A stretch of DNA of 39,528 nt. Origin: Myxococcales bacterium (GTDB taxonomy: Bacteria; Myxococcota; Myxococcia; Myxococcales; Myxococcaceae). Where the stretch lies: positions 1 through 39,528 of the forward strand of contig JAUXRI010000243.1 in assembly GCA_030681895.1 (NCBI GenBank). Reading direction: 5' to 3'. Under the pieces are notes generated by a model, which worked only from the letters and a program-made list of their open reading frames with translations, ran no database searches and had not been told where the DNA came from. A program made the translations under genes and the position numbers. Positions 6,403-11,041 of the stretch are shown piece after piece. Position 1 is the stretch's first letter, and each line of letters starts with the position of its first letter.

Positions 6403-7263
6403 GTGACTGACGCATTGAGGCTGACCGACGTTCGGCGACGGTTTGGAAAAGCCATCGCCCTCGACGGACTCTCGCTCGCGGTACGGCAGGGTGAAATCTA
6501 CGGTTTCCTGGGCCGCAACGGCGCGGGCAAGACGACGACGCTGCGCATCCTCACCGGGGTGCTCCACGCCGACGCGGGAACCGTGGAGCTGCTCGGCCAG
6601 CAGCTCAAAAAAGTTCCCGTCGAGCTCAAGCGCCGTATCGGCTCGGTCTCGCAGGAGCAGCACTTCTACCCGTGGATGACGGGGCGCGAGCTCGGCCGCT
6701 TCGTGAAGGGCTTCTACCCGACGTGGGACCAGCCCGAGTTCGAGCGCCTCGCGAAGCTGCTCGACGTCTCTCTCGACAAACGCGCGCAGGAGCTCTCCGG
6801 CGGCACGCGCACCAAGCTGGGCCTCGCGCTCGCGCTGGCGCCACGGCCTGACCTGCTGCTGCTCGACGAGCCCACCACCGGCCTCGACCCCGTCGCGCGC
6901 CGCGAGTTCAACGATCTCGTCTCCACCATCGTGAAGGAGCGCGGCTGCACGGCCTTCCTCTCGTCTCACCTCGTCGACGAAGTGCAGCAGGTGGCCCACC
7001 GCGTCGGCATCATTCAGTCGGGGAAGATGCGCATCGAGGGTGAGGTTCCGTGGCTGCTCGAGTCGGTGAAGCGGGTGCGCCCGCTGGAGCCGTTGGTTGA
7101 ACTGCCGCCCGGGTTCGAGGTGGTGCGTGGAGACGTCTGGCGCGCGACGCCCGAGACGTGGAGCGCCACGCCGTTTCCCGAGGGCACCGTCATCGAGCCG
7201 CTCAGCCTCGAAGACGTCTTCCTCGCCTTCGCCCGCACCGACGCCCTCGCCACCGCGGCATGA
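6403..7263 (+). CDS. ABC transporter ATP-binding protein.
   Basis: It has Walker A (GRNGAGKTT), an LSGG signature (ELSGGTRTKL), Walker B (LLLLDEPTTGLD) and an H-loop. The start is GTG at 6403. The stop overlaps the next gene's ATG. Confidence 0.9.
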   Translation: MTDALRLTDVRRRFGKAIALDGLSLAVRQGEIYGFLGRNGAGKTTTLRILTGVLHADAGTVELLGQQLKKVPVELKRRIGSVSQEQHFYPWMTGRELGRFVKGFYPTWDQPEFERLAKLLDVSLDKRAQELSGGTRTKLGLALALAPRPDLLLLDEPTTGLDPVARREFNDLVSTIVKERGCTAFLSSHLVDEVQQVAHRVGIIQSGKMRIEGEVPWLLESVKRVRPLEPLVELPPGFEVVRGDVWRATPETWSATPFPEGTVIEPLSLEDVFLAFARTDALATAA

Positions 7264-9074: not shown

Positions 9075-11041
9075 CGAAGACGCTGCTCCGCAAGGAGCTC
9101 CGCGCGCTGCGGCCGTACCTCGTCTTTGCACTCGTCCTGATGGGCGCGACGGTGTTCGACGTGGTGGTGACCGAGTCGGCGTTCCGCTCGCTCGCCGAGA
9201 CGTTCTCCTCGGTGGCGTCGATGCCGCTTCCGCTCATCTTCGGCATCGTGGCGCTCGCGCTCGGCACCGGCGTCTCGGTGAAGGAGCGCGACGAAGGCAC
9301 GCTCGCGTTCCTCGATGCGTTGCCGGTGACGCGCACGCACGTCTTCTTCGTGAAGCTCCTCGCCGCGATGCTGGTGCTCTCGGCGTTTCCGTTCTTCCAG
9401 CTGGGCTGGGCGGTCTTCGAGCACGCCTTCGCGCGAGGCAGCCTCGACACGCCGTTTCACTGGAACATCCTGCTGGGCGCGTTCCTCATGCAGCTGCAGT
9501 TGATGGCGACCTTCCTCGCGGCCGGCACACTCCTCGGCTTCGCGCGGAGCCTCACGTGGATGCTGGTCGGCGTCGTCGCGGCGGGCCTGCAGCGGCTCAT
9601 TCATTTCGTGCCGAGGCTGGCCATGCTCGACCCGCTGCGGCTGGTGGAGTCGGGCGTCGAGGGCGTCAGGTGGAACTACGAGGTCGAAGTCATCGGCGCG
9701 CAGGCGGCCATCGCCACGGCGTGCACGCTCGTCTCGTGGGTCCTCTTCGTTCGTGCGGGCCGCAGCCGCTCCATCACCGTGAACCGGCCCGTCGTCGGAG
9801 CCCTCGTCACGCTGCTGACCCTCGGCGCCATCTTCGGGGCGCTCACGCTCTGGTGGAAGACGGACTCAGGCGGCACCGCATCGAACGAGCCCGACCTCGA
9901 GAACGTTCCCGAGTCGGCGCCGGCGAGCACCACCACCACGCACTACGAGTTCAGCTACCCGAGCATCGAGTCGAAGGCCGCGCTCGAGCTCGCCGAGAAG
10001 GCCGATGTGACGTTCCTCCAGGTCAGCGAGCTGCTCGGCGTCGATGGTGGTGTGCCCATTCTCGTCGACCTGTCGGGCTCGATGCGGAACACCGTGGGCA
10101 CCGCGTTCATGGACCGCATCCGCATGCGCGCCGATGACGAAGCCGTCGCGACGCTGGCGCACGAGACGAGCCACGTCATCGCCCGCAGACTCATCGGAGA
10201 AGAGGGCTTCAGGCGGTGGTCGAACGCGCGGGTGCTCGACGAGGGGCTGGCGTCGTGGGTCGAAGGGCACTTCCTCATCCACCCCGACGAGGAGCAGCTG
10301 GTGCTCGCGGCGCTGCTCGACCGCAATGAGCTGCACCTCACCGACATCATCGACTTCGAGACCTTCACGAAGAACGGCGACGACGACCTCAAGTACGTCA
10401 TCGGCCGCGGGCTCATCGACGCGATGGTGAAGCGCTACGGGCCTGCGTCGATTCACAAGCTGCTCCGCGCGTTCGGTGACGAGCAGCTGCCGCCGAAGCT
10501 GGGCGGTGCGGCGTTGTGGCAGGCGACGTTCCAGCTGGCGGGCATGGACCTCTCGCTCGTCGCCGATGACTTCTTCGCTGCGGTCGAGAAGACGCTCGAG
10601 GCACGTCGCGCGCTCGTCGACGCGCTCCCACGTCCGCAGACGAAGCTGGTGACGCAGGAGGAGTGGTACGGCATCGAGGTGTCGGCCGAGCCCGCAGAGG
10701 AATACCCGAGGCTGGTGCTCCGCTATCGGCCCGGGCCTGACAGCTCGCTCGACGAATACGACCGTACCTGGGTTCGCAACGGTGACGTGTCGTGGCGAGA
10801 GAACGAGCTCATTCAACGGCGGCGGCTGTGCTTCCAGGCCGGGCTGCAGCTGAGTCGGAAGGCGACGCTGTTCGAGCCGTGGACGTGTCTGCCTCTGAGC
10901 TCCGCGGCGCCCCACGTGCCGCGCGAAGAGCCCGTCGAGCCAGACATCGAGACGTTCGACTTCGATGGGGGCGTGCTCCTCGACGGCGAGCGTGTCGATG
11001 GTGGGGAGCTCGACGCGCTCGATTTGCCCGACGCGGGTTGA
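9071..11041 (+). CDS. ABC-2-type permease fused to a C-terminal M1/gluzincin-like metallopeptidase domain with an intact HExxH-(22)-E motif.
   Basis: The N-terminal membrane domain has the same ABC-2 motif (KERDEGTLAFLDALPVTRTHVFFVKLL). The C-terminal domain contains LAHETSHVIARRL...VLDEGLASWVEGHF, i.e. HExxH plus a downstream Glu spaced as in the M1 family. The GTG at 9071 overlaps the preceding stop (GTGA). An in-frame ATG at 9032 is an alternative start. Confidence 0.75.
   Translation: MTKTLLRKELRALRPYLVFALVLMGATVFDVVVTESAFRSLAETFSSVASMPLPLIFGIVALALGTGVSVKERDEGTLAFLDALPVTRTHVFFVKLLAAMLVLSAFPFFQLGWAVFEHAFARGSLDTPFHWNILLGAFLMQLQLMATFLAAGTLLGFARSLTWMLVGVVAAGLQRLIHFVPRLAMLDPLRLVESGVEGVRWNYEVEVIGAQAAIATACTLVSWVLFVRAGRSRSITVNRPVVGALVTLLTLGAIFGALTLWWKTDSGGTASNEPDLENVPESAPASTTTTHYEFSYPSIESKAALELAEKADVTFLQVSELLGVDGGVPILVDLSGSMRNTVGTAFMDRIRMRADDEAVATLAHETSHVIARRLIGEEGFRRWSNARVLDEGLASWVEGHFLIHPDEEQLVLAALLDRNELHLTDIIDFETFTKNGDDDLKYVIGRGLIDAMVKRYGPASIHKLLRAFGDEQLPPKLGGAALWQATFQLAGMDLSLVADDFFAAVEKTLEARRALVDALPRPQTKLVTQEEWYGIEVSAEPAEEYPRLVLRYRPGPDSSLDEYDRTWVRNGDVSWRENELIQRRRLCFQAGLQLSRKATLFEPWTCLPLSSAAPHVPREEPVEPDIETFDFDGGVLLDGERVDGGELDALDLPDAG

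Follow-up and report, generated by a model that had tools for sequence, protein, structure and literature searches.

Why should an ATP-binding cassette (ABC) system of the ABC-2 type carry a peptidase-like domain on each of its two permeases, and what would such a complex do? The question is raised by three genes at positions 6403 to 11041 of a 39,528 nucleotide stretch of DNA from a Myxococcales bacterium (contig JAUXRI010000243.1, assembly GCA_030681895.1), the whole of which is referred to here as the window (∼69% G+C). All three lie on the forward strand and encode an ABC ATPase and two membrane proteins, termed permease A and permease B, each with an N-terminal ABC-2 membrane domain and a soluble C-terminal ectodomain. 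A preliminary description had treated the genes as one transporter unit, with two half-permeases bearing equivalent peptidase modules of zincin fold. The unit proved to be conserved, and the zincin fold was predicted for both modules; their equivalence did not survive, as B keeps an invariant zinc site and A lacks the catalytic residues in all members examined. On balance, we favour an ABC-2 complex that would perform ATP-coupled proteolysis in the periplasm, most plausibly by extracting a substrate and cleaving it.

The paired ectodomains and their active sites

The presence of a gluzincin fold in both ectodomains was settled by structure prediction. AlphaFold2 models built on family alignments gave a predicted local distance difference test score (pLDDT) of 88.7 and a predicted template modelling score (pTM) of 0.84 for B residues 262–656, with disorder confined to a linker and the acidic C-terminal tail, and a pLDDT of 93.8 and pTM of 0.91 for A residues 256–604. 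Both models have the thermolysin-like catalytic fold of the gluzincin clan MA(E), the catalytic domain beginning ∼20 residues past the last transmembrane (TM) helix and a beta-sandwich closing the ectodomain. In fold comparisons the A ectodomain scored 12.8 with ERAP1, 12.4 with PSA, 12.2 with collagenase and 9.6 with thermolysin, and for B the M30 and M9 endopeptidases scored as highly as M1. The tail of B has a pLDDT below 50 (model residues 368–395) and varies in length and sequence in the alignment.

The HExxH motif of the B model lies in a long helix (model residues 97–124) and Glu391 in the next (126–137); this gluzincin arrangement of HExxH and a downstream-helix glutamate is found in B only and not in A. 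Across 39 B-type sequences, reaching down to 23% identity, His364, Glu365, His368, Glu391, Gly392, Ala394, Tyr442 and Gly445 are invariant, and HExxH and x-E-G-[LF]-A are present in all 56 B-type open reading frames (ORFs) of related loci. A profile search of the PDB aligned Glu391 with the glutamate of the NEGFASY motif of aminopeptidase N (APN), while Tyr442, because of where it lies with respect to the motif, is presumed to have the role of the M1 tyrosine. It had been considered that the HExxH might be fortuitous and the fold unrelated; the predicted gluzincin fold and the invariant motif of B do not bear this out.

A site of this kind could also serve in metal binding or hand-over, or in hydrolysis of something other than a peptide. 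Such a role would agree with the JGI names of distant homologues ('multi-copper enzyme maturation permease', NosY-type) and with a weak similarity to NosY, but the label is a transfer of COG1277 from the membrane domain only, and no nos, copper or metallochaperone genes were found near the unit in the window or in three distant contigs that carry it. The full catalytic set, including the general base Glu365 and Tyr442, is moreover invariant, which would be needless for a mere metal site. We regard this explanation as highly unlikely.

The equivalent region of A is degenerate, and in the hhalign register against B both HExxH and the glutamate helix are replaced (Table 1). HExxH was absent from all 57 A-type ORFs and from all 40 aligned A-type sequences; at the third-ligand position Asp predominates, with some Arg and rare Glu, and the tyrosine position is unconserved. 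Residues E377, W381, L383, G385 and W390 of A are each conserved in at least 90% of sequences, and no other part of the A ectodomain is as well conserved as the region that holds them. Because HExxH is absent throughout, yet the degenerate region is the best conserved of the ectodomain, A is on sequence grounds a retained, conserved pseudopeptidase which keeps the fold only. The groove of A has probably kept some use other than catalysis.

This asymmetry bears directly on the model of the preliminary description, in which both ectodomains were active and processed an exported or imported peptide. The two share the gluzincin fold and are mutually homologous, but A lacks both histidines, the catalytic glutamate, the third ligand and the tyrosine in all 57 ORFs, which contradicts the model for A and makes it the least probable of the explanations weighed here. 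Import with trimming of the peptide is unlikely in itself, as the membrane domains resemble the exporter or extractor fold of NosY and GldF, no binding-protein gene is conserved nearby (59 loci) and the peptidase is predicted to be periplasmic.

Assignment of the ectodomains to a peptidase family was less straightforward than their fold. Against Pfam, B matched Peptidase_MA_2 at E = 0.17 and M1 was unmatched; A gave no peptidase match. When 23 B-type ectodomains were compared with Pfam and NCBIfam, scattered sub-threshold zincin matches were obtained (M48, M1, M36, MA_2 and SprT), driven by HExxH, and M1 was weakly matched in six of the 23 (best E = 0.033). The B family profile matched APN among PDB sequences (E = 0.014), exactly across HExxH...xEGxASY. 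Filing the B ectodomain under M1 or Peptidase_MA_2 was rejected, given that the zincin matches are sub-threshold and scattered.

Neither window permease reaches the gathering score of the M1 model PF01433. The M1 spacing is HEXXH-X18-E; in B, 22 residues separate His368 from Glu391, and alignment to APN requires a four-residue insertion. The M1 motif GXMEN is replaced in B by G336-S-M-R-N340, in the strand before HExxH (10079–10093, which by position number as residues 337–341), and its glutamate position is Arg in 17, Pro in 17 and Glu in two of the 39 B-type sequences. The secondary structure of the models lacks M1 domains I (the N-terminal beta-saddle) and IV (C-terminal, helical). On account of the spacing, the Arg or Pro at the GXMEN glutamate, the missing domains and the unmatched Pfam M1 model, the ectodomains share the clan-level fold of M1 only and are not members of the family. 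The M1-like gluzincin domains of the preliminary description are therefore retained as a fold in both proteins and given up as M1 membership and, in A, as a zinc site. The G-S-M-R-N stretch of B is superficially like GXMEN, and may be a vestige of ancestry common with M1. Since it lacks the amino-terminus anchor of M1, B is more likely to be a zinc endopeptidase than an aminopeptidase.

A conserved unit of three genes

The genes are translationally coupled, as had been described: the stop of the ATPase gene and the start of A overlap in ATGA (7260–7263), and the stop of A and the start of B in GTGA (9071–9074). The gene starts used are those common to full-length homologues and not those of longer, mechanically defined ORFs; full-length A homologues are all ∼600–640 residues long and start at the identical methionine. 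A scan of positions 5200–11400 for promoters and terminators gave nothing above shuffled expectation.

The first gene matches Pfam ABC_tran (E = 1.6e-29). As in other ABC-2 systems the ATPase is a separate protein with a Walker A motif, Q-loop, signature, Walker B Asp-Glu and H-loop; every canonical catalytic motif is kept, and by this measure it appears competent. Its best partial matches in NCBIfam are DrrA, RbbA, PmtA, GldA and lantibiotic-protection ATPases, and because all of these fall far below the equivalog cut-offs it is classed, from its sequence, as a generic ABC-2-type ATPase.

BLASTP aligned A with B in the TM2/coupling-helix region only (E = 7e-5). Family profiles compared with hhalign extended the relationship to the N-terminal membrane domains (99% probability, E = 9e-18) and the C-terminal domains (95.3% probability, E = 2e-8, 269 columns), so that the proposed paralogy of the two permeases holds over both halves, and A and B are classed by sequence as paralogous ABC-2 half-permeases. 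The shared motifs quoted earlier, REYTGKTQLFLEVLPISR of A and KERDEGTLAFLDALPVTR of B, were recovered in the putative coupling helices and rank among the best conserved positions of the two families. With Pfam, B matched ABC2_membrane_2 at 34.8 bits (cut-off 27.2) and ABC2_membrane_4 at 27.1 bits (cut-off 27); A alone scored a sub-threshold 15.8 bits against an ABC-2 membrane family, and many of its homologues carry PF12679 or PF12730. Membership of the ABC-2 group at the Pfam gathering cut-off thus comes through B. NosY (PDB 7o0y) was weakly matched by the family profiles (A, E = 0.011; B, E = 0.29), and a search with the B membrane domain alone, for other architectures, returned one fragment.

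Homologue searches produced ∼100 B-type and ∼60 A-type clusters, the full-length proteins all being ∼600–650 residues long and carrying no precomputed peptidase Pfam domain. The public names encountered were 'ABC transporter permease', 'hypothetical protein' and a COG1277 NosY-type label, and not the automated 'ABC permease/M1 aminopeptidase' labels which had been anticipated. On three distant contigs (38%, 27% and 23% identity to B) the order ATPase-A-B is kept; the three genes overlap or abut there and are flanked by unrelated ones. GTDB species genomes, when scanned, yielded 55 loci. The carriers include uncultured Myxococcaceae (the closest, at 90% identity), Archangium, Cystobacter, Pyxidicoccus and Citreicoccus, and further Steroidobacter and other Gammaproteobacteria, Massilia, Herbaspirillum, Verrucomicrobiota and Acidobacteriota; one A-type homologue is labelled Pirellulaceae.

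When 59 related loci from the Myxococcota, Gammaproteobacteria, Burkholderiales, Verrucomicrobiota and Acidobacteriota were compared by tblastn, the order ATPase-A-B was found in 53, the other six having no upstream sequence or no ATPase match. Clustering of the ORFs of these loci left the triad region as the only one common to more than 25 of them, and neither this clustering nor tblastn with five flanking genes revealed a conserved neighbour beyond the triad, past single-lineage synteny.

A profile of the B ectodomain was also searched against 1.84 billion representatives of clusters at 50% identity, with 363 matches at E ≤ 1e-30 and 961 at E ≤ 1e-3. Among the matches listed, proteins of ∼600–650 residues have the ectodomain at residues ∼270–630, and shorter ones resemble fragments; on this evidence the B-type ectodomain exists essentially always as a fusion to this type of ABC-2 permease. 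The triad of cultured Myxococcota (Archangium, Pyxidicoccus, Cystobacter and Citreicoccus) shows 32–36% identity to the window B, and that of metagenome-assembled genomes of uncultured Myxococcaceae 66–90%. The difference implies a deep split of the family inside the Myxococcota, which either old paralogy or horizontal transfer would explain.

Predicted topology and a proposed model for periplasmic proteolysis

Hydropathy predicts seven TM segments in A and in B, six plus one extra, where a six-TM permease domain had been described. The charge bias is compatible with an N-terminus inside, as in ABC-2 proteins, the Lys plus Arg counts inside and outside being 12 and 5 for B and 11 and 4 for A. 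Both the N-terminus and the TM6–TM7 loop are rich in Arg and Lys in the two proteins, and in B this loop contains four Arg without any acidic residue. Cys587 and Cys606 in the B beta-sandwich covary perfectly (both in 23 sequences, neither in 16, a single Cys in none), as expected of a disulfide in an oxidizing compartment, and all the named carriers belong to diderm groups. From the extra TM7, the positive-inside rule, the cysteine covariation, the diderm carriers and the odd number of TM segments in a Myxococcus xanthus relative (discussed below), the C-terminal domains of A and B are predicted to be periplasmic. The preliminary description had asked which compartment they face, and the extra helix, charge bias and cysteine pair point to the periplasm in an assignment based on hydropathy and homology.

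The preferred reading is of one NosY/GldF-like ABC-2 complex, for which we infer two copies of the ATPase with one A and one B. In each permease the six-helix core would be joined by a seventh helix that carries the C-terminal domain to the periplasmic side. There the B ectodomain would act as a working zinc metallopeptidase, probably an endopeptidase, and the A ectodomain as its likely non-catalytic partner, in substrate binding, as a lid or in regulation. Binding and hydrolysis of ATP in the cytoplasm would be conveyed by the membrane domains to the asymmetric periplasmic pair, so coupling proteolysis to the ATPase cycle. In the form that we favour, the membrane domains would extract a hydrophobic peptide, a lipopeptide or a membrane-anchored segment from the inner membrane or the cytoplasm and bring it to the B active site. 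Reading the three genes as one coupled complex draws on the translational coupling, the triad order kept across the loci and the complete set of ATPase catalytic motifs. YbbAP-TesA (PMC12646458) offers a functional precedent, in which an ABC motor and a periplasmic hydrolase together extract and hydrolyse membrane compounds.

Several points weigh against extraction and cleavage. Genes for a substrate, a regulator or a precursor peptide are not conserved beside the unit in the 59 loci, so that the substrate class is a guess. The sequence similarity of the ectodomains to every curated peptidase family is sub-threshold, and the predicted topology draws on hydropathy, charge bias, cysteine covariation and homology. 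The ABC-2 relative NosFY, in addition, reportedly moves no substrate across the membrane, and by analogy transport may not occur here either.

The last point leads to the main rival, pure mechanotransmission, in which the motor would switch the protease/pseudoprotease pair, or remodel a periplasmic or outer-membrane protein, without translocation. The outcome would be ATP-dependent proteolysis in a compartment where ATP is lacking, on the pattern of FtsEX-EnvC or NosDFY. The partner through which FtsEX acts is a LytM-type protein that is catalytically dead. Among solved structures NosY is closest to the membrane domains, and its complex, as Mueller et al. reportedly described in 2022 (7o0y and following), couples ATP hydrolysis to the exchange of periplasmic partners rather than to classical transport. 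Permanent retention of a dead paralogue is in keeping with its serving as a regulator or lid, and the absence of a linked substrate gene with a housekeeping protease; type VII ABC systems follow a like logic (PMC12646458). However, other ABC-2 relatives (lantibiotic-immunity permeases, the phenol-soluble modulin exporter Pmt and DrrAB) move peptides or drugs, and the sequence does not separate mechanotransmission from extraction with cleavage. We consider mechanotransmission possible, if rather doubtful.

A role in resistance or immunity to membrane-active peptides, such as bacteriocins, lipopeptides or antimicrobial peptides, is unlikely. The ABC-2 part would here expel the peptide and B destroy it, fusing the function of a LanFEG-type immunity transporter with that of a resistance protease such as NSR. 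The ATPase matches the NCBIfam models for DrrA (2e-49), PmtA (3e-44) and lantibiotic-protection ATPases (6e-42) about equally, but these matches are generic and fall far short of the equivalog cut-offs. Among the Pfam models matched by the membrane domains is ABC2_membrane_4, which we take to include lantibiotic-immunity permeases; the permeases drew no PADLOC or specialized match. The carriers are soil and freshwater bacteria in antibiotic-rich settings, among them predatory Myxococcota, but the linked two-component sensor or biosynthetic cluster usual for such systems is not seen in the loci compared.

Returning to the proposed ATP-coupled proteolysis by the triad, a broader suggestion can be advanced tentatively, that the family is an ATP-dependent protease for the periplasm in which the ABC motor powers or gates the asymmetric protease/pseudoprotease pair through the membrane. 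If true, diderm bacteria would gain regulated, energy-dependent proteolysis or extraction of envelope proteins where ATP is absent, and the unit would be a periplasm-facing counterpart of FtsH on an ABC-2 scaffold. FtsEX, Lol, NosDFY and, most recently, YbbAP-TesA, in which an ABC motor works mechanically on partners in the periplasm, are changing the view of ABC 'transporters'; to these this family would add a fused form of the ABC-2 fold with a metallopeptidase effector and an anciently fixed dead paralogue. As a compact, self-contained system of three genes, it would suit the study of the coupling between ATP hydrolysis and extracytoplasmic catalysis and of what a pseudoenzyme partner contributes, and cultured carriers exist (Archangium, Cystobacter, Pyxidicoccus, Massilia and Steroidobacter). 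The ectodomains also make up a zincin family which Pfam and NCBIfam do not currently recognize (∼360 clusters at 50% identity, E ≤ 1e-30). What would give the family its interest is the possibility that ATP drives proteolysis on the periplasmic side; its function and its substrate are both wholly inferred.

Feature map, neighbouring genes and known systems

The positions of the genes, domains and motifs are given in Table 1.

Table 1. Predicted features of the ABC-2 triad, with positions in the window
Feature	Position	Strand	Remarks
ABC ATPase gene	6403-7263	+	286 residues, GTG start, ∼70-residue C-terminal extension
ATPase Walker A, GRNGAGKTT	6511-6537	+	Motif located in sequence
ATPase signature, LSGGTRTK	6793-6816	+	Motif located in sequence
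ATPase Walker B, LLLLDEP (with Asp-Glu)	6853-6873	+	Motif located in sequence
ATPase H-loop His	6961-6975	+	Motif located in sequence
Permease A gene	7260-9074	+	604 residues, ATG start, 7-TM ABC-2 domain and pseudopeptidase ectodomain
A membrane domain	7260-8024	+	Residues 1-255, seven predicted TM helices (hydropathy)
A coupling-helix motif, REYTGKTQLFLEVLPISR	7455-7508	+	Residues 66-83
A TM7	7971-8024	+	Residues 237-255 (hydropathy)
A ectodomain	8025-9071	+	Predicted gluzincin-fold domain (256 to ∼505) without zinc ligands, then beta-sandwich (∼508-604)
A degenerate active-site region	8343-8429	+	hhalign register against B
A LHSVVG, replacing HExxH	8343-8360	+	hhalign register against B
A WLLDGFASYW, replacing the xEGLA glutamate helix	8400-8429	+	hhalign register against B
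Permease B gene	9071-11041	+	656 residues, GTG start, 7-TM ABC-2 domain and predicted metallopeptidase ectodomain
B membrane domain	9071-9853	+	Residues 1-261, seven predicted TM helices (hydropathy)
B coupling-helix motif, KERDEGTLAFLDALPVTR	9281-9334	+	Residues 71-88
B TM7	9791-9847	+	Residues 241-259 (hydropathy)
B ectodomain	9854-10954	+	Flexible linker, predicted gluzincin catalytic domain (to ∼520), then beta-sandwich
B zinc-binding/catalytic motif HETSH (His364, Glu365, His368)	10160-10174	+	Invariant
B Glu391, predicted third zinc ligand	10241-10243	+	In invariant E-G-x-A, 22 residues past His368
B Tyr442, candidate transition-state-stabilizing residue	10394-10396	+	Invariant
B beta-sandwich	10637-10894	+	Residues ∼523-608
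B Cys587 and Cys606, predicted disulfide in beta-sandwich	10829-10831 and 10886-10888	+	Covariation
B acidic C-terminal tail	10955-11038	+	Residues 629-656, predicted disordered, unconserved

An operon link between the triad and an upstream gene for a 349-residue protein, a GreA-like gene or a paralogue of elongation factor G (EF-G) was rejected, the synteny being confined to the closest relatives. The 349-residue protein (5325–6374, + strand), encoded 29 bp upstream of the ATPase gene, has no Pfam match; a stretch RALHAKGH recalls by eye the catalase proximal motif, a resemblance only. Its gene is placed outside the unit because ∼2.5 kb separates the homologue from the ATPase gene in some close relatives. 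Directly downstream of the unit lies the EF-G paralogue (11289–13271, + strand; 660 residues, with all five domains), which is probably unrelated to the ABC system, as it is syntenic in the closest Myxococcaceae relatives only. Assignment of the triad to a known defence system was also rejected, PADLOC having returned generic matches to the ATPase only and none to the permeases.

Elsewhere in the window, an alanine-rich ORF of 761 residues (2534–4819, + strand) matches no Pfam model and includes a hydrophobic segment rich in Gly and Val. An ORF of 783 residues (18444–20795, − strand) matches the Pfam major-vault-protein Shoulder (6.2e-30) and Vault repeat (4e-7) models and is a bacterial MVP-like protein, unusual outside eukaryotes. 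A 650-residue ORF (21261–23213, − strand) has an acetate kinase domain in residues 340–642 only (9.5e-101), and its 340 N-terminal residues, which have no assignment, may simply reflect an over-long mechanical ORF. A HoxF-like subunit (25042–26853, + strand) with 2Fe-2S thioredoxin-like, Nuo51 FMN and 4Fe-4S domains lies near the large subunit of a [NiFe]-hydrogenase (28092–29525, + strand), and the two look like part of a soluble NAD-linked hydrogenase cluster (25042–29525).

The literature on ABC-2/peptidase fusions, on gluzincins combined with ABC proteins and on TC 3.A.1.145 yielded no experimental study of the triad family, and to that extent the preliminary description was right to call the architecture uncharacterized; the pertinent finds were the TCDB note (PMC3924187) and the analogy of YbbAP-TesA (PMC12646458). 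The idea of a peptidase-fused ABC-2 permease is itself already known and catalogued (TCDB 3.A.1.145; PMC3924187). Undescribed in the literature found are the two-chain heterodimer, the ectodomain of unclassified zincin plus sandwich, the fixed asymmetry of active and dead copies and the phyletic spread.

TCDB family 3.A.1.145, the nearest relative described so far, is represented by M. xanthus Q1D520, a protein of 1200 residues with 13 TM segments, a true M1 domain and no known function (PMC3924187). The window unit shares with it an ABC-2 membrane domain, a C-terminal zinc peptidase placed after an odd number of TM helices, and occurrence in the Myxococcota. Q1D520 is, however, a single chain with a genuine Pfam M1 domain, whereas the unit consists of two 7-TM chains of ∼600–650 residues. 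Their ectodomains are an active/dead pair with a terminal beta-sandwich in each, and fall below threshold for every Pfam peptidase family. This distinction is drawn from the architecture as described (PMC3924187). With the M1 aminopeptidases (APN, ERAP1, IRAP and LTA4H), the ectodomains have in common the predicted thermolysin-like fold and a beta-sandwich after the catalytic domain as in domain III of ERAP and IRAP, and that of B also the HExxH with a glutamate in x-E-G-x-A-S-[WY] and an invariant downstream tyrosine.

The peptidase-containing ABC transporters of the C39 type likewise fuse a peptidase to a transporter subunit and couple cleavage to transport. Theirs is an N-terminal, cytoplasmic cysteine peptidase of different fold, on a fused membrane and nucleotide-binding protein encoded beside leader-peptide substrates; the window unit has no C39 match, a separate nucleotide-binding protein and a C-terminal zincin. 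NosFY(D) (7o0y) is closer, as it has the nearest solved membrane domain, the E-x-G-T-L...P-x-x-R coupling-helix motif and a motor that acts on a periplasmic partner domain. NosY differs in having six TM helices and no fused ectodomain, and NosD in being a separate beta-helix protein for copper/sulfur delivery and not a peptidase; nos genes do not accompany the unit. YbbAP-TesA and the other type VII systems (FtsEX-EnvC, LolCDE and MacB) also couple a cytoplasmic ATPase cycle to a periplasmic hydrolase or its regulator (PMC12646458). These have the 4-TM FtsX/MacB fold, in which TM1 and TM2 flank the periplasmic domain, and their hydrolase is a protein of its own, whereas A and B have seven predicted TM helices, the ABC-2 fold according to Pfam and a C-terminally fused ectodomain, the hydrolase being that of B. 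The resemblance to the type VII systems is thus functional only.

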